In this document: positions 2,333 through 49,803 of the stretch, in pieces
How the letters are laid out: each line of letters starts with the position of its first letter
How positions within the stretch are numbered: position 1 is the stretch's first letter
Assembly (NCBI GenBank): GCA_965278965.1
Contig: OZ257127.1
Location: forward strand, 2,808,567-2,872,566
Source of the DNA: Actinomycetes bacterium
Lineage (GTDB): Bacteria > Actinomycetota > Actinomycetes > S36-B12
DNA length: 64,000 nt
Direction of reading: 5' to 3'
The notes under the pieces: generated by a model
Database searches by the model: none
Seen by the model: the letters and a program-made list of their open reading frames with translations, nothing else
Told to the model about the DNA's origin: nothing
Position numbers and translations under genes: made by a program

Positions 2333-3684
2333 ACGGGCTCGTCGGCATGGATCAGCTCGAGCCGGACTTCGACACGGTCATCGTCGTCGCTCCGGACATG
2401 CACGGACGCCTCCTCGGCAAGCGCATGTCTCCTCGCAAGTTCCGCGAGTTCTCCGAGCGAGGCGTCGCCATGTCGGCCTGCACCTTCGGGTGGGACATCG
2501 CCCAGGACATGGGCCTGGAGGTGCCGTACGCAGGGTGGCACACCGGTTGGAAGGACTTCGTCCTCGCGCCTGACCTCTCGACCATCCGGCGGGCGGCCTG
2601 GCTGGAGCGGACCGCGATCGTGATGTCGGACGTCGTGGAGGAGTCCGATGGATCACCTGTCGAGATCACGCCTCGGCGCATCCTCCGGCGACAGGTCGAG
2701 CTCCTCGCGCAGCAGGGATTCACGTGCGATGTCGGCACCGAGCTGGAGTTTCACCTGTATCGAGAGTCCTACGACGACCTCCGGCGGGATGGCTATCACA
2801 CGAGGACGCCGACAACGCTCATTCACTCCGACTACGCGGTGCAGCAGGTAAACGCTTGGGAGCCCTTCTTCCAGCGGCTCCGTCGATGCCTGGATGAGTC
2901 CGGCCTCGATGTCGAGATGAGCCAGGGCGAATGGGGTCTCGGGCAATGGGAGATCAACCTGACCTACAGTGATGCGCTCGACATGTGCGACCGGCATGTG
3001 CTGTTCAAACTCGCGGTCAAGGACGTAGCGGCCCAGTCCGGCCTTTCGGCGACGTTCATGTCGAAGCCGAACGCCGGGCAGGTCGGGTCGTCCTGCCACA
3101 TCCACCTGTCGCTCGCCTCGGCCGATGGGGAGCCGCCCGCGTTCTGGGACCCGGAGGGGCCCTACTCGATGAGCATGGCGATGCGCAGCGCTGTCGGCGG
3201 CGTCCTCGACCGCGCTCCCGAGCTCATGGTCTTCTACGCGCCGACGATCAACTCCTACCGCCGGACGGACAGCGAGGAGTTTGCCGGCCGCGGAGCCTCG
3301 TGGGGGTACGACAACCGCACGGTCTCCTGCCGCATCCTGGGCACCGAGCCCCACTCGATCCGGATGGAGTGGCGAGTGCCAGGCGCGGACGTCAACCCCT
3401 ACCTCGCCGTCGCTGCCCTGATCGCGTCCGTGAACGACGGACTCAGGAACGGGACAGACCCGGGACCGGCGAGGACCGGCGACGTCTACCAGCAGGACAT
3501 CGGACCTCTGCTCCCGGAGACCCTCGATGTGTCGGCACGGCTTTTCCGAACCAGCCAGTTCACCTCGGACGCCTTCACGGACGAGGTCGTCGAGCAGTAC
3601 GCACGCGCGGCCGAATGGGAGTCTCGGGCCTTCCGGAACTCGGTGACCGACTGGGAGATGCAGCGCTACTACGAGAACACCTGA
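2329..3684 (+). CDS. glutamine synthetase-family gamma-glutamyl-amine synthetase (PuuA/GlnA2-4-like)
   Basis: About 450-aa GS catalytic-domain protein (GTELEFHLY, NAGQVGSSCHIHLSL, NSYRR motifs). ATG 2329 overlaps the SDR stop (ATGA). An alternative start at 2317 is possible. Confidence 0.85.
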   Translation: MNGLVGMDQLEPDFDTVIVVAPDMHGRLLGKRMSPRKFREFSERGVAMSACTFGWDIAQDMGLEVPYAGWHTGWKDFVLAPDLSTIRRAAWLERTAIVMSDVVEESDGSPVEITPRRILRRQVELLAQQGFTCDVGTELEFHLYRESYDDLRRDGYHTRTPTTLIHSDYAVQQVNAWEPFFQRLRRCLDESGLDVEMSQGEWGLGQWEINLTYSDALDMCDRHVLFKLAVKDVAAQSGLSATFMSKPNAGQVGSSCHIHLSLASADGEPPAFWDPEGPYSMSMAMRSAVGGVLDRAPELMVFYAPTINSYRRTDSEEFAGRGASWGYDNRTVSCRILGTEPHSIRMEWRVPGADVNPYLAVAALIASVNDGLRNGTDPGPARTGDVYQQDIGPLLPETLDVSARLFRTSQFTSDAFTDEVVEQYARAAEWESRAFRNSVTDWEMQRYYENT

Positions 3685-3716: not shown

Positions 3717-5177
3717 ATGCCCCGCGCTCACACAGCCGTACCCGAGCAGCTCGACCTGATCGATGGCGAGCTCCGCGTCCCAGCCGGAGATCCGGGGGCG
3801 TGGCTCGCAGACCCGAACACCGGCGCCGACCTCGCCCGTGCGGCATCGACAACGGCACGGGATGTGGACGCCGCCATCGCGGTTGCGAGCCGGGTTCACG
3901 CGGACGGCACGTGGCATGCCTTGCCGCGCGACCAGCGCGTCGCTGCCCTCCACCGGGTCGCTGTGGAGCTTGAGGCGGTGGTCGAGGACGTCGCCGTTGC
4001 GGAGTGTCTCGGCAGCGGCGTGCCGCTCGCAGTCACGAGGCTGTTCGCGGGATCGCTGCCCGATTCGTTCCGCGCGGCCGCGTCGTACCTCGACGGGGAC
4101 CCGGTCCTCGAGCTGGGCGAGGAGGACCGTGTGGTGGAGCTGCTCCGGCTCCCATGGGGTCCTGCTGCGGTGCTCGTGCCGTGGAACGCGCCCGCCGCGA
4201 TGGCCGCGAAGAAGTCTGCGTACGCGCTCGCCGCGGGGTGCCCGGTGATTGTCAAGCCGCCGGAGGCCGCTCCGCTGAGCGTGCAGTACCTGGCCGCCGC
4301 CGTCCAGCGGGCGGACTTGCCTCCCGGGGCGTTCCAGATGGTCCACGGCGGCCCTGAGGTTGGGGTCACTCTGACCACCGATCCGCGGGTCGCGGCGGTG
4401 TCCTTCACCGGGTCCGTGGCGACGGGTCGCGCGGTCGCTGTGGGCGCCGCCGCGACCTTCAAGGCCATGCAGCTCGAGCTGGGGGGCAACAACCCCGTGG
4501 TCGTGCTGCCGGATGCGGACATCGAACTAGCGGCCCAGGCGTTGGCCGACGGCATGGTCAAGCTGAACGGTCAGTGGTGCGAAGGCCCGGGAAAGGTCTT
4601 CGTCGCGGGGTCCGTCCATGACGAGCTCCTCGATGCCCTCTCGGCGCGACTGAGGTCCTTCGTCATTGGCGACACCTGGAGCACGACGTCCGACATCGGC
4701 CCGCTCGCCAACCGGAGTCACCGGGAGCAGCTGGATGACCAGGTATCCGCGATCGAGGTGGCGGGCGGCCGTGTCCAGGTGTGCGGGACCCCACCCGAGT
4801 CGGGCGGCTGGTTCTGGGCGCCACGGATCGTCACGGATGCGCCAAGTGACGCGTGCGTAGACGAGCTGTTCGGGCCAGTAGTCACCATCCATCGCGTCAC
4901 GTCCGATGCGGAGGCGGTCTCGCTCGCGAACGACTCGCCGTACGGCCTAGCCGCGTATGTGTTCTCCGGCGACCTGGGCCGTGGCCTCGCTGTGGCCCGA
5001 GCGCTTCGGTTTGGCGAGGTGAAGGTGAACGGAACAAGCATCCTGGACCTGTCCGAAGAGTCGGCGCAGAGCTTCTGGCGGGGCAGTGGGATCGGCGGGC
5101 ACGGGAACCGTGAGCTGTTCGAGTTCTTCCGCGGGACGCAGATCGTCGGGATGGACCGCGCGGGACTTCCGCTCTAG
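3717..5177 (+). CDS. NAD(P)-dependent aldehyde dehydrogenase
   Basis: FTGSVATG, ELGGNNP and NGQWCEGPG motifs. ATG 3717 is in frame within the 730-aa ORF 2985-5177, whose upstream part overlaps the GS gene and looks non-coding. Confidence 0.85.
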   Translation: MPRAHTAVPEQLDLIDGELRVPAGDPGAWLADPNTGADLARAASTTARDVDAAIAVASRVHADGTWHALPRDQRVAALHRVAVELEAVVEDVAVAECLGSGVPLAVTRLFAGSLPDSFRAAASYLDGDPVLELGEEDRVVELLRLPWGPAAVLVPWNAPAAMAAKKSAYALAAGCPVIVKPPEAAPLSVQYLAAAVQRADLPPGAFQMVHGGPEVGVTLTTDPRVAAVSFTGSVATGRAVAVGAAATFKAMQLELGGNNPVVVLPDADIELAAQALADGMVKLNGQWCEGPGKVFVAGSVHDELLDALSARLRSFVIGDTWSTTSDIGPLANRSHREQLDDQVSAIEVAGGRVQVCGTPPESGGWFWAPRIVTDAPSDACVDELFGPVVTIHRVTSDAEAVSLANDSPYGLAAYVFSGDLGRGLAVARALRFGEVKVNGTSILDLSEESAQSFWRGSGIGGHGNRELFEFFRGTQIVGMDRAGLPL

Positions 5178-5228
5178 CGCTCAGAACAGACGCGGGACCT
5201 GGCTCGCACGTCACGTCGAGCAATCCAG

Positions 5229-6314
5229 ATGATGGAGATGATCATGACCGATGACCTCTTTGGCAGTGGGCACGAGCAGGTGGTGCTGTGCCACAACCCG
5301 GAGTCTGGACTCAAAGCCGTAATCGCCTTGTACTCGACCGCCCTGGGGCCATCGTTGGGGGGAACCCGCTTCCACCCCTACGGGTCGTCGCAGGAGGCGA
5401 TCGACGATGCGCTGCGGCTGTCCAAGGCGATGGCCTACAAGAACTCCCTCGCCGGGCTCGACCACGGCGGGGGGAAAGCCGTCATCATCGGCGACCCCGA
5501 CACCCTCAAGTCGGAGACCTTGTTGCGAGCGTACGGTCGGTTCGTTGACGGGCTGAACGGCCGCTACTTGACCGCGTGTGACGTCGGCACCTACAGCCCC
5601 GACATGGACGTCATCGCCAGGGAGACGCCGTACGTCACAGGTCGGACCGTCGCGAACGGCGGGGCCGGCGACTCATCGATTCTGACCGCGTGGGGCGTGT
5701 ATCAGGGCATGCGGGCCGCGGCACAACATCGGTGGGGAAGCACGTCTCTGGCCGGTAAGCGGATCGGGGTCGCAGGAGCGGGCAAGGTGGGCTCTCGCCT
5801 CACCGAACTACTGGTTGACGCGGACGCCATCGTGACGATCGCCGACCCGCATCGTCCAGCGGTCGACGCCCTCATCGCCCGGTTCCCGAACGTGTCCGCG
5901 GTAGGGACGACCGAGGACCTGCTGGCCGTCGACATCGACATCTACTCACCGTGCGCCATGGGCGGGGCCATCAACCGCGCGTCGATCGCGTCGCTCACGG
6001 CGGCGATCGTGTGTGGGGGAGCCAACAACCAGCTGTCCGAGCCCGGTATCGATCGAGAGCTGGCTGACCGGGGCGTGCTCTACGCACCGGACTACTGCGT
6101 CAACGCCGGTGGGGTCATCCAGATCGCGGACGAACTCACGGGCTTCGACTTCGAACGAGCCAAGGCTCGGGCAACACGCATCTTCGACACGACACTTCGA
6201 GTACTCGACCTCGCCGCATCGACCGGAGTCACCACCGCGGCCGCGGCAGACCGACTCGCGGAACAGCGGATCGTCGACGTCAGCCAACTCGCCACCATCT
6301 ACCGCCGCACCTAG
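5229..6314 (+). CDS. leucine/valine dehydrogenase (Glu/Leu/Phe/Val dehydrogenase family)
   Basis: [22 protein letters not shown] (catalytic Lys) and the [12 protein letters not shown] Rossmann motif. Confidence 0.85.
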
Positions 6315-40675: not shown

Positions 40676-40696
40676 TCACGTCGTCGCTCGCCAACT

Positions 40697-40760
40697 CGTT
40701 GACTGTGCAGCTGAGCCCCGGTTGGTGCCGTTGAAGTGGGGCTCACCTGCACAGTCAACG
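40697..40760. terminator. Long hairpin (23-bp stem with 1 mismatch, 18-nt loop) between convergent genes
   Basis: cgttgactgtgcagctgagcccc / ggggctcacctgcacagtcaacg, read directly. Lies between the aminotransferase stop and the mscL stop. Confidence 0.7.
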
Positions 40761-40770
40761 AACGAAGGGG

Positions 40771-41166
40771 CTACTGCTGGCGCTGCGCCTTGAGCAGGTC
40801 GCGGATCTCGGTGAGCAGCGCGATGTCCTCGGGGGTGGCCGCGGCCTCCTCCTCGGCCGTCGCCTTGCCGGCCGCCAGCCGCTCGCGGAACTTGTTCATC
40901 GGCACCACGAAGATGAAGTAGATGACCGCGAGGGTGATCGCGAACGTGATGATCGCGTTGATCATCGCGGTGAAGTCGATGATCTGCCCGCGGATCTCGA
41001 TCGTCCCGGCGTTCACGCCGCCGCCGAGGAAGATCCCGATGATCGGCTTGATCAGCGCGCCGGTGAAGACGGCGATAAGGGCGGTGAAGGCCGCGCCGAC
41101 GACGACGGCGACAGCGAGATCGATGACGTTGCCGCGGAAGATGAACTCCCGAAAGCCCTTGATCAT
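40771..41166 (-). CDS. mscL: large-conductance mechanosensitive channel
   Basis: MIKGFREFIFRGNVIDLAVAVVVGAAFTALI is the canonical MscL N-terminus. Confidence 0.9.
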   Translation of the reverse strand: MIKGFREFIFRGNVIDLAVAVVVGAAFTALIAVFTGALIKPIIGIFLGGGVNAGTIEIRGQIIDFTAMINAIITFAITLAVIYFIFVVPMNKFRERLAAGKATAEEEAAATPEDIALLTEIRDLLKAQRQQ

Positions 41167-41213: not shown

Positions 41214-41651
41214 CTAGCCGGTGCGGATCACCAGGGTCAGCGTCCGGCCGACGGCGGCGCTGAGCCGCAGACCCTCGGCGGCGGGCACGGCCAGCAGCAC
41301 GACGGCCGACGACGTCGAGCCGAATCCGCCCGAGGTCGCGGGCCGCAGGACACGCGCCGCGTCGGCGACGATCTCGGGCGCGGCAACGTCGTCGTCGGGC
41401 ACGGCGACGACATCGACCAGGTCCCCCGGGCCGACGGTCGCCGCGATCGCCGCACTGGCCAGGACCACGGGGACCGCCACCTCGCCGCGCCGCGGGGAGG
41501 TCTCGGACTGCGCATCCAGGCGGACATCGGCTGAGGTCGGGGGCGTGCGCAGCGCCGTCAGTGCGGCGAGCATCGCGGCAGCCGCGGCGACGGCGGCGAG
41601 CCCACGGCGATGCCGACGTGTGGCGGACTGGAGGCGAGCGGGCAGGTGCAC
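41214..41651 (-). CDS. SAF-domain / CpaB-like protein with N-terminal membrane anchor
   Basis: 145 aa with an anchor (LAAVAAAAAMLAALTAL). The position between fmdB and mscL is as in other Actinobacteria. The domain call is tentative. Confidence 0.5.
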   Translation of the reverse strand: MHLPARLQSATRRHRRGLAAVAAAAAMLAALTALRTPPTSADVRLDAQSETSPRRGEVAVPVVLASAAIAATVGPGDLVDVVAVPDDDVAAPEIVADAARVLRPATSGGFGSTSSAVVLLAVPAAEGLRLSAAVGRTLTLVIRTG

Positions 41652-41718
41652 GGCGCGACGCTAGGGCCGCCAGTCGATCAGGGCGACCGGCTGTCCACAG
41701 GCAGGCGGTGCGGCGGCG

Positions 41719-42117
41719 CTAGGAAGCGGCGGGCGTGCCCGAACTGCCGGACGAGCCGCTCGAGGACGAGCTGCCGGACGACGAGCCGCTGGAGGACGTG
41801 CTGCCGGACGACGAGCCGCCCGTCGTCGAGCCGGTCGACGAGGGGGTCGACGAGCCGGACGACGACCCGGAGTCGCCAGAGCCGGCGGAGGAGCTGCCGG
41901 AACCGGTGGAGGCCGACGTGGTGGCCGGGGTCTTGGCGTCGCGGGAGTCGGTCCGGTAGAAGCCCGAGCCCTTGAAGTGGATGCCGACGCCGGTGAACAG
42001 CTTGCGCACGCCGGGCGTCCCGCAGACCGGGCACTCGGTCAGCGTCGGGTCGGACATCTTCTGCTGGACCTCGTGCGTGGTGTCGCACGCCGCACAGGCG
42101 TACTCGTACGTGGGCAC
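41719..42117 (-). CDS. FmdB-family zinc-ribbon protein with a long Ser/Gly-rich tail
   Basis: VPTYEYACAACDTTHEV..CPVCG (CxxC..CxxC). AGGAGG RBS 6 nt upstream of GTG 42117. The C-terminal half is poly-Ser/Gly/Thr. Confidence 0.8.
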   Translation of the reverse strand: MPTYEYACAACDTTHEVQQKMSDPTLTECPVCGTPGVRKLFTGVGIHFKGSGFYRTDSRDAKTPATTSASTGSGSSSAGSGDSGSSSGSSTPSSTGSTTGGSSSGSTSSSGSSSGSSSSSGSSGSSGTPAAS

Positions 42118-42213
42118 GGATCCTCCTGGCACTCGCGGGTGAAGAGTGCTAAGTGTGCATCGGGCCGCGGCCTCGGCGCAAACCGCCCCCCCACGACGCC
42201 CCCCACCCCCGGG

Positions 42214-42269
42214 GATTCCATACGCCAGCGTCACTCGCGACATCGCTAGGGACGCTGGCGTATGGAATC
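42214..42269 (+). repeat. Hairpin repeat copy 1: perfect 19-bp stem GATTCCATACGCCAGCGTC, 18-nt loop
   Basis: Arms at 42214-42232 and 42251-42269 are perfectly complementary. Located 38 nt upstream of the acylase GTG, in a divergent intergenic region. Confidence 0.85.
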
Positions 42270-42307
42270 GGGGCCGGCCACGGCGGCTGCGCTTGTAGCG
42301 TGCCCGC

Positions 42308-44896
42308 GTGCGGACCTTCTGGCGCGTGCTCGGGATCCTCGGCCTCGTCGTGCTGCTGGTGCTCGTCGGCGTCGTGGGCTTCGCGATCCACACCGTGCGG
42401 GCCTCGTTCCCGCAGACCGACGGCCAGATCGACCTTCCCGGCCTGCGCGAACCGGTGACCGTCGTGCGGAACGCCCAGGGCGTCCCCGACATCTACGCGA
42501 CCTCGGTCGGGGACCTGTTCTACGCCGAGGGCTACGTGCACGCGCAGGACCGCTTCTGGGAGATGGACGTGCGCCGGCACATCACGGCCGGCCGGCTCTC
42601 GGAGATGTTCGGCGCGAGCCAGGTCGACACCGACACGTTCCTACGGACCCTGGGCTGGCGGCGGATCGCTGAACAGGAGGTCGGCATGCTCTCCGATCGT
42701 TCGCGGGCGATCCTCGACTCGTACGCGGCCGGGGTCAACGCCTATCTCGCCGACCACCAGGGCGACCGGCTGAGCCTGGAGTACGCGGTGCTCGGCCTGC
42801 AGAACCCCGACTACCGCCCCGAGCCCTGGTCCCCCGCCGACTCCGTTGCGTGGATCAAGGCGCTCGCCTGGGAGCTGCGCAGCAACCTCGACGACGAGGA
42901 GTACCGCTCGATCATGTCGGCGTCGGCGGGAGTCGACCGGACGGAGGAGCTCTTCCCGCCGTACCCGTACGCCACGCACCGCCCGATCGTCGAGGGCGGG
43001 GCCGTCGTGGATGGGGTGTTCGACCAGGACGCGACGGCGGACGCGGCGGTGAAGGGGGCGATGGCGTCGCCGGGCGCGCGGACAGTGCTCGCGTCGGCTC
43101 ACCGCTCCGCAGCCCTGCTCGAGGAGTGGCTCGGTCCCGTCGGGGACGGCATCGGCTCGAACTCCTGGGTTGTCGCCGGCGACAAGACGTCGACCGGCAA
43201 GCCGATCCTGGCGAACGACCCGCACCTCGCGCCGGCGATGCCCAGCCTGTGGTACCAGGTCGGCCTGCACTGCACGAGCCCGTCGACGTCCTGCGACTAC
43301 GACGTGTCGGGCTGGACGATGTCCGGGCTGCCGGGCGTGTTCATCGGGCACAACGCGGACATCGCCTGGGGTTTCACGAACCTCGGCCCGGACGTCACCG
43401 ACCTCGTGCTGCAGAAGGTCGACGGTGACACGTACCTCGTGGACGGGCAGGACGTCCCGATGACGACGCGGCGCGAAGTCATCAAGGTCGCGGGCGGGGA
43501 TCCCGTTACCGTCACCGTCCGTGAGACGGCCGACGGGCCGATCATCTCCGACGTCGCCGGCGTCGACACCTACCCGGCGATCGGGCAGGTCGCCCCCGTG
43601 CCAGCGCCCGGGTCCGCGGCCACGCGGGCCGCGCCGCCGGACCGCGGGGACGGCTACGCGGTGGCGCTGCGGTGGACGGCGCTGCAGCCGAACACGACGT
43701 TCGACGCGTTCGACCTGCTCGACACCGCGACGGACTTCGGGGAGTTCCGGGCGGCCGCGGCCCGGCTGAACGCTCCGGCGCAGAACCTCATCTACGCCGA
43801 CACGGCGGGGAACATCGGCTACCAGGCGCCCGGCCTCATCCCGATCCGCGAGGGCTACGACGGCAAGTGGCCCGTCCCGGGCTGGGACTCCCGGTACCGC
43901 TGGGCCGGCTACATCCCGTTCGAGGCGCTGCCGTTCGTCCTCAACCCGCCCGAGGGCTGGATCGTCACGGCGAACCAGGCCGTCACCGGCCCCGACTACC
44001 CGTACTTCATCACCGACGACTGGTCCTACGGAGCGCGCAGCCAGCGCATCGTCGACCTCATCGAGGCGGGGACGGCCGACGGCGCAACCTTGGACGTCGC
44101 CGAGATGCAGGCGATCCAGCGCGACTCGGTCAACGAGCTCGCGACGTTCCTCGCCCCCCGGCTCGCGGCCCTGCCCACGACGCCCGACACGCAGGCACCG
44201 GTGGACCTGCTGCGCGGCTGGGACGGCAGCCAGAGCGTCGACTCGGCGGCGGCCGCGTACTTCAACGCCGTGTGGCGCCAGCTGGTCGCGCGCATGTTCG
44301 ACGGCGAGTCCGGCACGGACCTCATCTCCGCGGACGGCGGCGACCGGTTCTGGGAGGTGATCTACCGGATCTGGGACGCCCCGGAGGACTTCTGGTGGGA
44401 CGACCGGACCGAGGACGGAAAGCAGACCCGGGACGAGACGCTGCAGGCGGCATTGGCGGCCGCCGCGGCCGAGTTGCGTTCGACGCTCGGCGACGACCCG
44501 TCGCAGTGGCGGTGGGGAGCGCTGCACACGCTGCTCCTGCGCAACGAGACGCTCGGTGACAGCGGAATCGCGCCGATCGAGGCGCTGTTCAACCGCGGGC
44601 CGATCGAGGTGGCCGGCGGGGACTCGACTGTGGATGCGACAGGCTGGACGCCGGTCGACGGCTACGGGGTGGACTGGGTACCGAGCATGCGGCAGGTCGT
44701 CGACCTCGCGGACCTCGACGCGTCGACGTGGGTCAACCTCACGGGCGCGAGCGGCCACGCCTTCGACCCGCACTACGACGACCAGGTCGAGGCCTGGCGC
44801 ACCGGCGCGCAGTACGCGTGGCCGTTCACGCCGGCGGCGGTGCAGGCGGCGGCGGCGCAGACGCTGACGCTCGCGCCGACCCCCGCCTCCGACTAG
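42308..44896 (+). CDS. penicillin acylase family (Ntn hydrolase, peptidase S45) protein
   Basis: 862 aa with an N-terminal TM/signal sequence, the GIGSNSWVV processing/nucleophile Ser motif and typical family length. Confidence 0.85.
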   Translation: MRTFWRVLGILGLVVLLVLVGVVGFAIHTVRASFPQTDGQIDLPGLREPVTVVRNAQGVPDIYATSVGDLFYAEGYVHAQDRFWEMDVRRHITAGRLSEMFGASQVDTDTFLRTLGWRRIAEQEVGMLSDRSRAILDSYAAGVNAYLADHQGDRLSLEYAVLGLQNPDYRPEPWSPADSVAWIKALAWELRSNLDDEEYRSIMSASAGVDRTEELFPPYPYATHRPIVEGGAVVDGVFDQDATADAAVKGAMASPGARTVLASAHRSAALLEEWLGPVGDGIGSNSWVVAGDKTSTGKPILANDPHLAPAMPSLWYQVGLHCTSPSTSCDYDVSGWTMSGLPGVFIGHNADIAWGFTNLGPDVTDLVLQKVDGDTYLVDGQDVPMTTRREVIKVAGGDPVTVTVRETADGPIISDVAGVDTYPAIGQVAPVPAPGSAATRAAPPDRGDGYAVALRWTALQPNTTFDAFDLLDTATDFGEFRAAAARLNAPAQNLIYADTAGNIGYQAPGLIPIREGYDGKWPVPGWDSRYRWAGYIPFEALPFVLNPPEGWIVTANQAVTGPDYPYFITDDWSYGARSQRIVDLIEAGTADGATLDVAEMQAIQRDSVNELATFLAPRLAALPTTPDTQAPVDLLRGWDGSQSVDSAAAAYFNAVWRQLVARMFDGESGTDLISADGGDRFWEVIYRIWDAPEDFWWDDRTEDGKQTRDETLQAALAAAAAELRSTLGDDPSQWRWGALHTLLLRNETLGDSGIAPIEALFNRGPIEVAGGDSTVDATGWTPVDGYGVDWVPSMRQVVDLADLDASTWVNLTGASGHAFDPHYDDQVEAWRTGAQYAWPFTPAAVQAAAAQTLTLAPTPASD

Positions 44897-44899
44897 CTC

Positions 44900-44955
44900 G
44901 ATTCCATACGCCAGCGTCACAAGGCGGCCCGGGAACGACGCTGAGGTATGGAATC
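44900..44955 (+). repeat. Hairpin repeat copy 2: same 19-nt left arm, right arm with 2 mismatches, 18-nt loop
   Basis: The left arm 44900-44918 is identical to 42214-42232. The right arm 44937-44955 is gacgctgAGgtatggaatc. It starts 4 nt after the acylase TAG. Confidence 0.85.
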
Positions 44956-44960
44956 GCCTG

Positions 44961-45554
44961 CTAGCCGAGGGGGACGACGCCCGACGGGGTCAACGCGACG
45001 TCGACGGTGAGGTCGTGCTCCTCGTTCGGGACCTCGTCGACGATCTCGTCGTCGAACACGCAAGCCACCCGCAACGGCCCGCCGTCCGCGTGGGGCGGGA
45101 CGTCGGCGAGCGCGCGGTCGTAGAACCCGCCGCCCTGCCCGAGTCGGCGGCCGGCGCGGTCGACCGACAGCGCCGGCAGGAACACGACCGCGACCTGCGC
45201 GAGCGCGCCAATCACGGCGGGCCCGGTCGGCTCGGCGATGCCGAACGCGCCCGGGGTCGTCGGCACATCCGGCCGCCACTCCACCCACTCGAGCACGCCG
45301 CCTGCGACCCTCGGGACGATCACGGCAGCGCCAGCGGCGTCGAGCGCAGCGAGCAGCGGGTCCGTGCCCGGCTCGGTCGGCAGCGACAGGTGTGCGGCGA
45401 CGGTCACCGGCCCGGCGACGAGGTCGCGGCCATGCCGCGCCAGCGCCTGCGCGGCGGCTTGCCGTTCTGGCAGGTCGCGGGCGGCGCGTGCGTCGCGGAC
45501 GTCCGCCCGCATGCGCGCCTTGGCCTCGCCTACGTCGACGGTCACCTGGGCCAT
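44961..45554 (-). CDS. 5-formyltetrahydrofolate cyclo-ligase
   Basis: 197 aa with the family pattern (..VAAHLSLPTEPGTDPL.., GQGGGFYDR). Conserved position next to galU. Confidence 0.75.
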   Translation of the reverse strand: MAQVTVDVGEAKARMRADVRDARAARDLPERQAAAQALARHGRDLVAGPVTVAAHLSLPTEPGTDPLLAALDAAGAAVIVPRVAGGVLEWVEWRPDVPTTPGAFGIAEPTGPAVIGALAQVAVVFLPALSVDRAGRRLGQGGGFYDRALADVPPHADGGPLRVACVFDDEIVDEVPNEEHDLTVDVALTPSGVVPLG

Positions 45555-45580
45555 GCTGCCCGATCCCCTAGGGTCTGGCC

Positions 45581-46477
45581 ATGGATGGCCGACCCGTGCG
45601 CAAGGCCGTGATCCCCGCCGCGGGGCTCGGCACTCGCTTCCTGCCCGCCACGAAGGCGACGCCGAAGGAGATGCTGCCCGTCGTCGACAAGCCGGCGATC
45701 CAGTACGTCGTCGAGGAGGCCGTCGCCGCCGGCCTCGAGGACGTCCTGTTCATCACCGGCCGTAGCAAGCGCCCGCTCGAGGACCACTTCGACCGCAACC
45801 TCGAGGTCGAGCAGGCCCTCCAGGACAAGGGCGACACCGCGCGGCTGGACGCCGTGACCGAGTCGACCGACCTTGCTCGCATCCACTACGTCCGTCAGGG
45901 CGACCCCCTCGGCCTGGGGCACGCGGTGCTCGTGGCGGAGAACCACGTGGGCGACGAGCCGTTCGCCGTGCTCCTCGGCGACGACCTCATCGACCCGCGC
46001 AACCCCGTCCTGGCGTCGATGGCGGAGGTGCGCGAGCGGTTCGGCGGCTCGGTGCTGTGCCTCATGCGCGTGCCGCGCACGTCGATCTCGTTGTACGGCT
46101 GCCCGGCCGTCGAGCCGACCGACGACCCGGGCGTCGTCACGGTCACGGACCTGGTCGAGAAGCCCGACATGGACGCCGCCCCGAGCGACTTCGCCGTGAT
46201 CGGCCGCTATCTACTCGACCCCGCCGTGTTCGACGTGCTGCGCGCGACGCCGCCGGGCCGCGGCGGCGAGATTCAGCTGACGGACGCGCTCCGCGTGCTC
46301 GCGACGATGCCGGTGGCCGACGGCGGCGGCGTGCACGGCCTCGTCTTCGACGGACTGCGGTACGACACGGGAGACCGCCTGTCCTACCTGCAGGCCAGCA
46401 TCATGCTCGCCTGCGAGCGCGAGGACCTCGGTCCGCCGCTGCGCGCGTGGCTGGCGGACTTCGTCAACGGAACGTGA
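45581..46477 (+). CDS. galU: UTP--glucose-1-phosphate uridylyltransferase
   Basis: VIPAAGLGTRFLPATKATPKEMLPVVDKP is the canonical GalU N-terminus. Confidence 0.9.
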   Translation: MDGRPVRKAVIPAAGLGTRFLPATKATPKEMLPVVDKPAIQYVVEEAVAAGLEDVLFITGRSKRPLEDHFDRNLEVEQALQDKGDTARLDAVTESTDLARIHYVRQGDPLGLGHAVLVAENHVGDEPFAVLLGDDLIDPRNPVLASMAEVRERFGGSVLCLMRVPRTSISLYGCPAVEPTDDPGVVTVTDLVEKPDMDAAPSDFAVIGRYLLDPAVFDVLRATPPGRGGEIQLTDALRVLATMPVADGGGVHGLVFDGLRYDTGDRLSYLQASIMLACEREDLGPPLRAWLADFVNGT

Positions 46478-47145: not shown

Positions 47146-48021
47146 TTGCATTTCGTGACGGGCCTGATCTACCTGGTGATCATCGCCTTGTGGGCCGCCG
47201 TCCTCATCCCCATCTGGCTGCGCCGGCACGACCAGATCAGCGAGGTCCGGTCGACCGCCCGTTTCAGCTCCGCGATGCGCTCCCTGGGCACGCCCGGGCA
47301 GCTGCAGTACGCCGCAGACACGTACGTCCTCGACAGCCGCGACGTGGACCTGACCCTCCAGGCCTCCGCCGCCCCGCGATCGGAGGCTCGCATGACGCGA
47401 CCGACGGCTGACCGGACCACCCGCCCCGCCGAAGGCCTGGACCCCGACTACGAACGCGAGCTCATCCGGCAGGCCGCCGCGACGCGTCGTGCCGTGGTGC
47501 TCGGTGCCCTCACGGCGATCCTGCTCGTCACGCTCCTTCTTGCCATCGTGTCCGTCCTGCCGAAGTGGGCGCCCGCGCTGGCGGCCGTGCCGGTCGTCGG
47601 CTTCGTCGTCGCTGCCGCGATGACGTCCTCGTCCCGGTCGTCGGCCCCGGCACGTCCGGCCACGCGCCGCGAGCGTCGTCCGGCCGCAATGCCCGAGCCC
47701 GCCCGTCGGGGTGCCGCCGCGCAGACGGACGAGGAGTGGGAGAGCTGGAACGCCTGGGACGACGACTCGTGGGAGGCGCAGCCGACGACGCTGCCGACCT
47801 ACGTCAGTGCCCCGCGCGCGTCGGCCGTCCCCCGCGGGATCGACCGCGAGAGCCCGGGGGAGTGGACCGGCGAGGCGATGGTGCAGGCGGCGCAGGCGAT
47901 GCGCTCGCGGCCGCGATCTGCGCCGCTGGTCAATGCCAGTGCGCTCGACTATGGCGCGCAGACCGCGGAGATCCCGGCCGTCACCGACGACTACCCCGCC
48001 CGCCGCGCCGCCGGGGAGTAG
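47146..48021 (+). CDS. SepX/GlpR-like divisome membrane protein
   Basis: The N-terminal TM helix plus GLIYLVIIALWAAVLIPIWLRRHDQISEVRSTARFSSAMRSL matches my recollection of SepX/GlpR. Position after the GNAT gene is as for Rv0996. The rest is disordered. Confidence 0.55.
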   Translation: MHFVTGLIYLVIIALWAAVLIPIWLRRHDQISEVRSTARFSSAMRSLGTPGQLQYAADTYVLDSRDVDLTLQASAAPRSEARMTRPTADRTTRPAEGLDPDYERELIRQAAATRRAVVLGALTAILLVTLLLAIVSVLPKWAPALAAVPVVGFVVAAAMTSSSRSSAPARPATRRERRPAAMPEPARRGAAAQTDEEWESWNAWDDDSWEAQPTTLPTYVSAPRASAVPRGIDRESPGEWTGEAMVQAAQAMRSRPRSAPLVNASALDYGAQTAEIPAVTDDYPARRAAGE

Positions 48022-48074
48022 GGCCGGTCCGACGACGGTCGGCCGCTTGCTACCCTTTACCCCCGCACGACAAA

Positions 48075-48147
48075 GGGGCTGTAGCGCAGCTGGTAGCGCA
48101 CCTCGTTCGCAACGAGGGGGTCAGGGGTTCGAATCCCCTCAGCTCCA
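48075..48147 (+). tRNA. tRNA-Ala (anticodon CGC)
   Basis: Manually folded 73-nt cloverleaf: GGGGCTG acceptor with the G3:U70 Ala identity pair, anticodon loop TTCGCAA, T-arm AGGGG-TTCGAAT-CCCCT. Confidence 0.9.
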
Positions 48148-48151
48148 CTTC

Positions 48152-48197
48152 CGTGAAGTCCCGGGACTCCCCTGATGGGGTGTCCCGGGACTTCACG
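48152..48197. terminator. Near-perfect 46-nt hairpin (15-bp outer stem, inner CCCC/GGGG stem, TGAT loop) followed by TTT
   Basis: cgtgaagtcccggga...tcccgggacttcacg, read directly. Sits between tRNA-Ala and the convergent SDR gene. Confidence 0.8.
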
Positions 48198-48212
48198 TTT
48201 CGCCCCCACTGC

Positions 48213-48998
48213 TCACAGCGTGGTGACGAGTCCGCCGTCGATCCGCAGGTCGCTCCCGGTGATGTTGGCCGCGCGATCGCTCGCCAGGTACAGCACGAGG
48301 CTCGCGATCTCGTCCACGTCGGTGAACCTCCCGGTCGCGGCCTGGGCCGCCTGCTGGCGGACGACCTCCGAGGCGTCCACACCGGTCGCCCGACCGACGG
48401 CAGCGGCGACGCCGGTGTCGGCGAGCCAGAGGTCGGTCCGCACCGGTCCAGGGCTGATCGTGTTCACCCGGATGTGTGGGCCGAGCTCCTTCGACAGGGA
48501 CTTGCACAGGTTGACGAGGGCGCCCTTGGCCGCGCTGTAGTCGATGACGCCAGGGTCCGGCAGCGCGGCGTTGACCGAGCCGACCGTCACGATGTTCGCC
48601 CCGGGCCTGCCGGTCATCGCCGGGATGGCCGCTCGCATCGTCCGCACGGCGGCGAGGAAGTTGATCGTCAAGGACCAGTCCCATTCGTCGTCCGTGACGG
48701 CCAGGAACCCGTCGACACGGGGGCGGACCGCCCCGACGTTGTTGACGAGGATGTCGATTCCGCCCAGCCGGCCCACCGCGCTGTCGATCAGCTCTCGTGG
48801 CCCCGTCGGGGTCGAGAGGTCGACGGCGACGGCGTGCACGCGCCCGCCGCGGGTCAGCTGGTCGAGCTCGTCGCTGCCCCGAAGCGCCCCGGCGACGACC
48901 GTCGCGCCCTCGGCCGCGAGCGCGGTCGTGATGGCCAGCCCGATTCCCTTGCTTGCGCCGGTGACGACCGCGGTGCGGCCCGCGAGGTGAAGGTCCAC
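48213..48998 (-). CDS. short-chain dehydrogenase/reductase (SDR)
   Basis: VTGASKGIGLA and YSAAKGA motifs. Confidence 0.85.
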   Translation of the reverse strand: MDLHLAGRTAVVTGASKGIGLAITTALAAEGATVVAGALRGSDELDQLTRGGRVHAVAVDLSTPTGPRELIDSAVGRLGGIDILVNNVGAVRPRVDGFLAVTDDEWDWSLTINFLAAVRTMRAAIPAMTGRPGANIVTVGSVNAALPDPGVIDYSAAKGALVNLCKSLSKELGPHIRVNTISPGPVRTDLWLADTGVAAAVGRATGVDASEVVRQQAAQAATGRFTDVDEIASLVLYLASDRAANITGSDLRIDGGLVTTL

Positions 48999-48999
48999 G

Positions 49000-49803
49000 T
49001 CACAGTCCCTGCCGGCCCAGCCACGACAGGCAGGCGTCAGCGACGTCCCGCCAGCCGTGGTCGATGGTCAAGGAGTGACCACGGTCGGGGAACTCCATGA
49101 TGTCGGTGACGGCATCGCTGTGCCGGTACTGCTTCAGCGTCGCCCGTGTCACGGCCTCGGGCACGGTGTTGTCCTTGCCGCCGGTGATCAGAAGGAGCGG
49201 GCCTCGTCCGGAGTTGGCGGTGTCGACCTTGGCGGCGGAGTGCGGGTTGAAGCTGGCTGCCGCGGCCTCGAAGAGCGGCTTGCCGGGTGCCGGGATCGTC
49301 CATCGGGAGAAGAGGGCGTCCGACTCCTCCTCCGGGATGGCGTTACCGAAGGCGAACCGGAACTGCTCGGCCGTCAGGGAGACCGCGCGATGCCGGTTCG
49401 CCGGGTTCTTGAAGACGGGCAAGGTCGCCCGCAGTGCCGACAGCGGCAGAGGCAGGACGCCCTTGATCTGCGCGGCGTCGATGGCGACCGCCGCGGCAGC
49501 CAGGTCCTCGCCTAGGAGCCGCTGGGCGATCATGCCCCCGAACGAGTGCCCGACCAGGATCGGTTTGGCGGGCAGGCCGGCGATGACGTCTGCGTAGTGC
49601 GCGACGACGTCGTCGATGCCGTGGTCGGCGATCAGGTCCGGGTGTTCGCGCGCTTCCTCGACCGTGTCGGGATCCCCGGGCCACCCGGGAGCGGAGGCGT
49701 CGTATCCGGCCGCCGTGAACGCATCGATCCAGTCCTCCCAGGACCGAGCGTGCAGCCAGAGGCCGTGGATGAGGAGAACGGGGGTGCTCGCGGTCATGTA
49801 CAT
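49000..49803 (-). CDS. alpha/beta hydrolase
   Basis: GHSFGG nucleophile elbow, 267 aa. Its stop lies 1 nt from the SDR start. Confidence 0.8.
   Translation of the reverse strand: MYMTASTPVLLIHGLWLHARSWEDWIDAFTAAGYDASAPGWPGDPDTVEEAREHPDLIADHGIDDVVAHYADVIAGLPAKPILVGHSFGGMIAQRLLGEDLAAAAVAIDAAQIKGVLPLPLSALRATLPVFKNPANRHRAVSLTAEQFRFAFGNAIPEEESDALFSRWTIPAPGKPLFEAAAASFNPHSAAKVDTANSGRGPLLLITGGKDNTVPEAVTRATLKQYRHSDAVTDIMEFPDRGHSLTIDHGWRDVADACLSWLGRQGL

Follow-up and report, generated by a model that had tools for sequence, protein, structure and literature searches.

The stretch of DNA analysed here, referred to throughout as the window, is 64,000 nt long and comes from an Actinomycetes bacterium (GenBank assembly GCA_965278965.1, contig OZ257127.1, positions 2,808,567–2,872,566 of the forward strand). 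The study concerns two matching long hairpins that lie on either side of a penicillin-acylase family gene in this window. In a first-pass annotation, made from the sequence alone, the hairpins had been taken for a repeat element bounding an inserted acylase gene, and the genes had been named as fmdB, penicillin acylase and cyclo-ligase; these gene identities were confirmed by Pfam. The genes and features of the locus are given below in window coordinates.

40771–41166, minus strand: MscL (Pfam).
41719–42117, minus strand: Zn_ribbon_8/FmdB protein (Pfam), gene fmdB/ruc.
42127–42152, minus strand: CIRCE-like operator TGGCACTC-N9-GAGTGCTAA in the fmdB/ruc leader, just upstream of the ribosome-binding site (RBS), kept in all relatives aligned.
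42198–42269, no strand: inserted segment of about 72 nt with copy 1, consisting of a C-rich lead (GCCCCCCACCCCCGGG) and then the hairpin; boundaries uncertain by a few nucleotides.
42214–42269, no strand: hairpin copy 1, 19-bp stem without mismatches, GCCA between the boxes TCCATAC and GCGTCAC, 18-nt centre.
42296–42301, plus strand: −10-like TAGCGT, ending 6 nt before the acylase GTG and within the conserved GCTTGTAGCGTGC block.
42308–44896, plus strand: penicillin-acylase family gene, Penicil_amidase (Pfam PF01804, E = 1e-240), 862 aa; context, outside the element.
44893–44963, no strand: convergent-stop junction, with the acylase TAG (44894–44896), copy 2 and the cyclo-ligase stop CTA (44961–44963).
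44900–44955, no strand: hairpin copy 2, arms of copy 1 with two mismatches, unrelated 18-nt centre.
44961–45554, minus strand: 5-FTHF_cyc-lig, 5-formyl-THF cyclo-ligase (Pfam).
45581–46477, plus strand: GalU-like nucleotidyl transferase (Pfam).

Copy 1 (42214–42269) is composed of left arm GATTCCATACGCCAGCGTC, an 18-nt loop and right arm GACGCTGGCGTATGGAATC, which together form a perfect 19-bp stem, and 38 nt separate it from the acylase GTG at 42308. Copy 2 (44900–44955) has the same left arm and an 18-nt loop; its right arm (GACGCTGAGGTATGGAATC) carries two mismatches, both of which fall in the 4-bp spacer of that arm. It begins at the fourth nucleotide past the acylase TAG and ends 5 nt short of the stop codon of the convergent cyclo-ligase gene, and the 64-nt gap between the two stop codons is almost wholly taken up by it. 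The two loops are unrelated (6 of 18 positions identical on direct reading). When the window was searched for the 19-mer with up to three mismatches, the only matches were these four arms; the chance expectation from shuffles was 0.01 matches and four matches were reached in none of 100 shuffles. On both strands, the predicted fold of each copy is much stronger than that of shuffled sequence (z = −5.2 to −6.5). The folds contain further outer pairing: at copy 1 a clamp is formed by CCCCC (42207–42211) and GGGG (42270–42273), and at copy 2 a CTAGC/GCTAG pairing brings both stop codons within the extended stem. A covariance model (R1), built from 18 copies of the family described below, scored copy 1 at 64.4 bits (E = 2e-17) and copy 2 at 62.2 bits (E = 1e-16). 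With filters off, R1 found no third copy in the window; the next best matches were unrelated long hairpins at 18 bits or below, which were considered as family members and rejected as they were all singletons. The matching pair of hairpins with 19-bp stems and 18-nt loops described in the first-pass annotation is therefore real, given four arm matches against 0.01 expected. The 'same orientation' ascribed to the copies has no firm meaning, since each copy is palindromic and the two are thus both direct and inverted repeats of each other. A terminator scan of 41500–45800 returned no sites. The tails after the hairpins are GCCTGCTAG and GAGCTAGTC, and neither copy is followed by the U-tract that makes up a canonical intrinsic terminator together with a GC-rich hairpin.

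Nine related loci (L050–L054 and L072–L075), found by protein search and with acylase identities of 65–84%, were compared with the window. Every one of the nine has the acylase in this place; downstream of it is the cyclo-ligase/galU block in eight (in L052 this flank holds other genes) and upstream of it is fmdB in seven (in L074 and L075 crcB and other genes take its place). No hairpin copy was found by R1 in the nine loci (∼140 kb). Relative to four of them the acylase is 79–84% identical and its flanking genes are 57–93% identical, so that it shows no excess divergence, and its promoter-like box and stop-codon context are conserved. The spacer from the fmdB start to the acylase start measures 190 nt in the window versus 117–118 nt in L050, L052, L053 and L054, and a MAFFT alignment places one 72-nt block of the window (about 42198–42269) opposite a gap in the relatives. 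Downstream, the acylase and cyclo-ligase stop codons are separated by 64 nt in the window (+61) versus 3 nt in L054 (TAGcggTCA) and L073 (TGAgcaCTA). In L053, the closest relative (acylase 84%), the stop-to-stop junction is 66 nt long and is occupied by a different palindrome (3208–3287), the 20-bp stem of which (CTAGCTCCCACACCTGCAGC, with an internal repeat of GCTGCAGGTG) includes both stop codons. Since the relatives keep the acylase without the hairpins and the spacers are longer in the window, it is the hairpins that are the insertions: they are recent, lineage-specific insertions into an inherited gene order, and the acylase was not carried in by them.

The proposal that the acylase is cargo placed between the hairpins falls with its presence in nine of nine hairpin-free relatives and with a divergence like that of its neighbours. 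The first-pass annotation had itself named relatives that all carry the acylase between unrelated flanks as the finding that would count against cargo, and the nine relatives are of this kind. It had also stated that the acylase splits fmdB from the cyclo-ligase gene relative to Mycobacterium; the split itself stands, and its tie to the hairpins does not, as the split is old. Horizontal replacement of the acylase between the hairpins was considered as well and was rejected because acylase divergence equals that of the neighbours. The annotation of the acylase is corrected by these results: it is not mobile cargo, and a horizontal-transfer story is unwarranted. As a separate observation, the acylase/cyclo-ligase neighbourhood is a gene-gain hotspot in the relatives, with a sulfatase gene, DUF222/HNH (13E12-like) genes, a TetR gene and, upstream, crcB genes; the segments with extra genes near the acylase are L050 6006–7862, L072 12519–14093, L074 2390–4399 and L052 12531–13265.

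Beyond the window, a strict pattern (GATTCCATACNNCAGCGTC) was scanned over 185,579 species-representative genomes. It was too subfamily-specific: 48 of its 49 matches were lone chance matches without a partner arm, and the one true hairpin, in an Actinomycetes metagenome-assembled genome (MAG; locus L035), has an 18-nt centre and begins inside the TGA stop codon of the gene for a 695-aa membrane protein. A structured pattern, TCCATAY-N4-GCGTC-N16-20-GACGC-N4-RTATGGA, with about 23 specified bases and written from the six arms then known, matched 17 metagenome stretches (chance expectation well below 1 by our own calculation); several of the matching contigs share assemblies, and one contig of 96.6 kb holds two copies. 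Four further copies were found by R1 in the fetched DNA. With each orthologous site counted once, there are 21 distinct copies, two in the window, 18 on lake or wetland metagenome contigs and one in the Actinomycetes MAG. Comparison of the flanks gave at least 13 non-orthologous sites, and some contigs carry two or three copies. The neighbouring genes are mutually unrelated (a hexapeptide transferase, a secreted metallophosphoesterase, a GT4 glycosyltransferase, a CHAP-domain protein, a response regulator, a CopD-like protein and several hypotheticals). No Rfam family matched at gathering thresholds or at permissive E-values, at which only sub-threshold, miRNA-like generic hairpin matches were returned; viral contigs gave no matches and neither did plasmids. 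With a dispersed family, conserved boxes, unrelated gene contexts and no U-tract terminator, the earlier reading of the pair as a repeat element, and not as two independent terminators, holds; its arms do have counterparts elsewhere at the level of the family, where the annotation had taken a 19-mer occurring nowhere else as a sign to the contrary. At L074 21580–21646 there is a hairpin with a 21-bp stem (GAATGAGTCCAGGCGTCGC...GCAACGCCTGGACTCATTC) in which TCCA and GCGTC stand in the family order without the intervening 7 nt; it is missed by R1 and may be a shortened relative of the family or a coincidence.

All copies have box 1 (TCCATAC) and box 2 (GCGTC, in most cases with AC after it) with a 4-bp spacer between them, so that the box starts are 11 nt apart; this constancy is qualified further below. 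The folded units have in common an outer C-run/G-run clamp, an internal loop and a long stem, and copy 1 of the window has the same layout. The complete element would be one long hairpin built from the outer clamp, box 1, the 4-bp spacer, box 2 (GCGTC[A]C) and a free centre of 12–16 nt. Stems are 19–27 bp long, and the units, of about 60–95 nt, are non-coding and consist of one long inverted repeat, as is expected of a miniature inverted-repeat transposable element (MITE). The spacers are perfectly complementary in five subfamilies (GAAA, CCCG, GTTT, GCAC and GCCA) and are mismatched in others, including copy 2 of the window. Over 26 proposed pairs, 84% of cells were paired and double changes occurred in 13 pairs; the observed pairing or covariation score was reached in none of 500 shuffles, and sliding the partner destroyed the signal. 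G–U pairs are rare, which fits either folding on both strands or a constraint that acts on DNA. Conservation of the arms versus the centre was 96% versus 44% for non-orthologous copies of one subfamily and 87% versus 25% for the window pair. The box spacing of 11 nt is about one helical turn and suggests, from the sequence, that a protein might read one face of the stem.

A pair of palindromic sites, one of them in a divergent promoter region, could also be thought of as paired operators of a local transcription factor that controls the acylase or the divergent fmdB. The motif is found beside unrelated genes in other organisms, however, and is missing in all relatives with the same gene pair, even though the promoter elements there are conserved; the second copy lies past a stop codon, and operators do not usually have 19-bp half-sites separated by an 18-bp gap, with complementary bases at positions that are not contacted. 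We regard this explanation as extremely improbable.

Evidence that the element moves came from two orthologous metagenome segments, L068 and L056, which are 94–96% identical. A copy is present at L068 4730–4804, between a hexapeptide-transferase gene and the next gene, and the corresponding site in L056 is empty; the insert is bounded by an 11-bp duplication (GCGACTCGCGC) that occurs singly in L056. The copy in L065 is bounded by an 18-bp duplication (TGTCCATGTGTCGGAAAC; p = 0 in 300 shuffles). Both duplications start 25 nt to the left and 17 nt to the right of the TCCATA...TATGGA core, which gives a unit of 92–93 nt. Around the window copies no target duplication was found, the best direct repeats being 5 nt long (p about 1). 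Y1/HUH elements (IS200/IS605, RAYT) make no target duplication. With target duplications in two members and no conserved GTAG-type foot, the IS200/IS605 or RAYT (REP-associated tyrosine transposase; REP, repetitive extragenic palindrome) mechanism that the first-pass annotation had in mind is not favoured.

The arrangement of two copies around one gene is not confined to the window. Same-family pairs, 1.1–2.8 kb apart and bracketing one or two genes, were seen in L068 (a 710-aa gene), L071 (a 270-aa gene), L070 and L056. A segment of 1,587 nt is extra in L056 compared with L068 and includes a degenerate hairpin copy and a toxin–antitoxin-like gene pair. A cassette-deletion model was tried on this indel and was rejected, as its boundaries lie outside the hairpins. 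Leaving out the locus-defining copies, about 4–5 extra copies occur in about 150 kb of metagenome loci and one in the 64-kb window; by our own estimate this corresponds to one extra copy per 30–60 kb, at which density a second copy would fall within 3 kb in about 10–20% of cases. At such a density the pairs require no cassette mechanism, and chance or local hopping is enough to explain them.

Three details of these loci are recorded in their own right. L052 has a hairpin family of its own (arms approximately GGTGTTGAGGTTCG.CCCGG) at 2870–2932 and 5167–5231; this pair, 2.3 kb apart, brackets an FAD-oxidase gene and a small open reading frame (ORF) in a like pattern and with unrelated sequence. 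At L071 35–2133 two paralogous genes stand in tandem, with flanks 79% identical over 958 nt and a hairpin copy after each; gene and hairpin seem here to have been duplicated together as one unit. The part of the 1.6-kb extra segment at L056 11385–12389 contains a small membrane ORF, the degenerate copy and two minus-strand ORFs, which were read from their translations only as an HTH (helix–turn–helix) antitoxin and its partner.

These pairs bear on the proposal that the hairpins are recombination sites or element ends (attC-like, IS200/IS605-like or RAYT-mobilised) which brought in the acylase or can excise it. In its favour, same-family pairs around one or two genes recur in L068, L071, L070 and L056, with a pair of another family in L052, and the two boxes, the sometimes unpaired spacer and the variable centre are loosely like a folded attC site, which integrons also carry as hairpins with a variable terminal structure and in which, as here, copies stand at gene ends. 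The boxes TCCATAC and GCGTCAC are unrelated to the RYYYAAC and GTTRRRY of attC, however; there is no cassette array, and no integrase or Y1 transposase was seen among the genes annotated around the copies. The acylase is ancestral, being found in nine hairpin-free relatives with its promoter and stop contexts conserved and with the divergence of its neighbours; the indel edges in L056/L068 are off the hairpins, target duplications are not products of Y1/HUH enzymes and the spacing of the pairs is compatible with the density of the family. IS200/IS605 elements and PATEs have different subterminal hairpins at their left and right ends and leave an empty site without the whole unit, whereas here both 'ends' are the same palindrome and the relatives are without the hairpins only, the acylase being kept. 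The cassette proposal is therefore considered to be highly unlikely.

The explanation that we favour, with a probability of roughly 0.6, is that the hairpins are two copies of a short palindromic mobile element of the MITE, REP or TRIT (Tuberculosis Rho-Independent Terminator) kind, scattered through the intergenic regions of several uncultured high-GC bacteria, at least one of them labelled Actinomycetes. Both copies entered a gene order (mscL, a hypothetical gene, fmdB/ruc, acylase, cyclo-ligase, galU) that was older than they are and had been inherited vertically, their closeness of 2.7 kb reflecting local hopping or the density of the family. Copy 2 landed exactly between convergent stop codons formerly 3 nt apart, and copy 1 between two promoters, the CIRCE-controlled one of fmdB and that of the acylase, whose mRNA appears to be leaderless. 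The hairpins, their absence from the relatives, the sizes of the insertions, the family, its covariation and the target duplications of two members are observed; the agent of transposition, a terminator or stabiliser role and recognition of the boxes by a protein are proposed.

Several results weigh against this explanation and were taken into account in its probability. The strict 19-mer scan of 185,579 genomes gave only one true relative, and there are only two copies in the 64-kb window. The box cores were required by the search pattern, so that their constancy is partly a matter of ascertainment and their universality is overstated; despite this, the recovered sequences differ in spacer, centre and flanks and are informative. 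Duplications were found in two of about 20 copies and are of unequal length (11 and 18 bp), which is unusual for a classical (DDE) transposase; none was found around the other 18 copies, including both in the window. The window inserts, of 72 and 61 nt, are shorter than the units of about 92 nt elsewhere. No transposase or autonomous parent was seen among the genes annotated near the copies, although the loci were not searched exhaustively for one. Finally, mycobacterial RNA polymerase is reported to require a U-tract for intrinsic termination in vitro (PMC3993855), and with no U-tract after the hairpins a terminator role of copy 2 is unproven.

Some of the same results could be accommodated by a purely local event. 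One hairpin would have arisen a single time, for example at the convergent junction, and ectopic repair or gene conversion would then have placed a copy of it 2.7 kb upstream; the organism would have no family spread over its genome. The presence of only two, adjacent copies in 64 kb, the near absence of the strict 19-mer from species-representative genomes and the local pair of another hairpin family in L052 agree with this. Relatives of the element with the same boxes and architecture in other organisms point to a non-local origin, and the unrelated centres of the two copies speak against a recent simple copy; a local event is accordingly judged improbable.

Compared with described systems, the family is new and of a known type, that of the short palindromic mobile or intergenic repeat, and is notable for its two boxes, free centre and variable target duplications. 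The closest parallel in Actinobacteria is TRIT, described as 147 palindromic, sequence-conserved and mostly bidirectional hairpins at gene ends of M. tuberculosis, for which the authors suggested recognition of the double-stranded motif by some factor (Gardner et al., 2011; PMC3152330). By that description the two have in common a conserved sequence and structure, many copies, a position (for some copies of the present family) next to or overlapping stop codons, a hairpin that is mostly usable on either strand, a place in Actinobacteria and the lack of a canonical U-tract. They differ in that TRIT was reported only in Mycobacterium and that neither mobility nor target duplications were described for it, and in that several copies of the present family are in promoter regions.

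Correia/NEMIS elements of Neisseria are small, non-coding MITEs with inverted-repeat arms, dispersed between genes and polymorphic for filled and empty sites; they form RNA hairpins, can affect neighbouring transcripts and show target duplications in some copies. The present family resembles them as a small non-coding inverted-repeat unit with dispersed copies in unrelated contexts; one filled/empty pair was seen in it, and duplications bound two copies, the other 18 having none. Classical MITEs have a duplication of fixed length (TA for Correia) and a conserved interior, whereas here duplications of 11 and 18 bp accompany a hypervariable centre; to our knowledge the family has no parent insertion sequence (IS). 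REP/BIME sequences and REPINs are short palindromes located at gene ends; their stems are conserved, their loops vary, and they have roles in mRNA 3′-end protection and termination. In contrast to the REP/RAYT system, the present family has no conserved GTAG/GGAG foot (its 5′ flanks are GGGGAT, CGCTGA, CCCTCA and similar), has target duplications in two copies and has much longer stems (19–27 bp). No RAYT gene was seen among the genes examined, and none was sought genome-wide. The literature search returned no paper linking REP/RAYT with Actinobacteria and nothing relevant on MITEs in Actinobacteria.

The positions of the copies relative to gene ends were then considered. At the acylase/cyclo-ligase junction, which measures 3 nt in L054 and L073, the lineages of the window and of L053 have acquired different long palindromes independently of each other. 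A further palindrome in the window (40696–40761), an unrelated singleton with a 25-bp stem and a 16-nt loop (TCGTTGACTGTGCAGCTGAGCCCC...), occupies the convergent aminotransferase/mscL junction, which is 14 nt long in L050 and 32 nt long in L052; this is again a lineage-specific hairpin gain. Of all 21 copies, eight are within 25 nt of a stop codon (many at 1–21 nt), copy 2 is between two stops and others are in promoter regions, the gene calls being crude. Taken together, the palindromes gained at one junction, the aminotransferase/mscL palindrome and the copies near stops suggest that a strong hairpin working in both directions is of benefit between genes that end head to head. Copy 2 would probably have been kept for such a reason: forming on both strands, it would terminate or protect the transcripts of both genes and keep antisense read-through low; its role may be 3′-end protection, pausing or factor-assisted termination and not classical termination.

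From here it is a short step to a host-encoded functional signal, that is, a TRIT-like hairpin for transcript ends or RNA processing, or a site for a nucleoid or RNA-binding protein, kept by selection and with new copies rare. Strongly conserved arms around a free centre, the 11-nt box spacing that fits one helix face, the many copies that abut stops and the gain of different palindromes at one convergent junction would all be expected of it. A transcript-end signal is ill-suited to copy 1 and to the copies in L066, L070 (the first of that locus, L070a) and L065, which lie in divergent or promoter regions; moreover, the target duplications and the clean filled/empty pair indicate discrete insertions, and the element is absent from close relatives with the same genes. 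As an alternative to a mobile element this is unlikely, and it can be compatible with the preferred explanation, since a mobile element can be co-opted.

Copy 1 lies in a different setting. In the divergent region, three blocks are conserved between the window and four relatives, namely the RBS together with TGGCACTC-N9-GAGTGCTAA, GCAAACC and GCTTGTAGCGTGC. The last of these (region 42290–42310) is nearly invariant, with L054 deviating at two bases, and contains the −10-like TAGCGT. An in-frame TAG at 42296–42298 excludes any earlier acylase start, and with only 6 nt from the end of the −10-like box to the GTG, the acylase mRNA probably has no leader. Copy 1, upstream of this box and between the divergent promoters, is on the same grounds probably outside the acylase transcript and in neither of the two transcripts. 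It would then probably escape transcription and have no effect, or serve at most as a spacer or insulator. In M. tuberculosis the FmdB-like gene Rv0991c (ruc) neighbours the cyclo-ligase gene and is repressed directly by HrcA (PMC7448276). The CIRCE-like operator kept in the fmdB/ruc leader suggests that HrcA control of the zinc-ribbon chaperone gene, as for Rv0991c, may extend to this lineage.

Some observations in the window concern other features. The 3′ half of fmdB/ruc (41723–41870) consists of 15-nt tandem units, GACGAGCCGCTGGAG-like on the plus strand, which encode a low-complexity tail, and the tandem-repeat pattern varies among the relatives (compare L052 9500–9660). A hairpin with a 21-bp stem at 48152–48197 directly follows tRNA-Ala (48075–48148) and is probably the terminator of the tRNA transcript. 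The tRNA is also overlapped by a long ORF (47565–49100), probably a spurious one, for which Pfam gave no match.

A more specific proposal is put forward tentatively, as possible though doubtful: that these hairpins belong to an undescribed palindromic family of about 90 nt in uncultured high-GC Actinobacteria, which generates variable target duplications of 11–18 bp, has two 7-bp boxes one helical turn apart under selection around a free centre, and has repeatedly been recruited at convergent stop codons as a two-way transcript-end signal without a U-tract. If this were true, the family would be a mobile counterpart of the mycobacterial TRIT, and would imply a stem-reading protein, either a transposase or a termination or processing factor, common to these lineages. 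The two-box stem motif could serve as bait for such a binding factor or transposase. R1 can be used to annotate the family, the elements of which mark very recent genome change between close strains. High-GC Actinobacteria outside Mycobacterium carry sequence-conserved palindromic hairpins at gene ends, at least some of which arrived by insertion, and this bears on the way in which transcription units are brought to an end where U-tract terminators are scarce in the genome.

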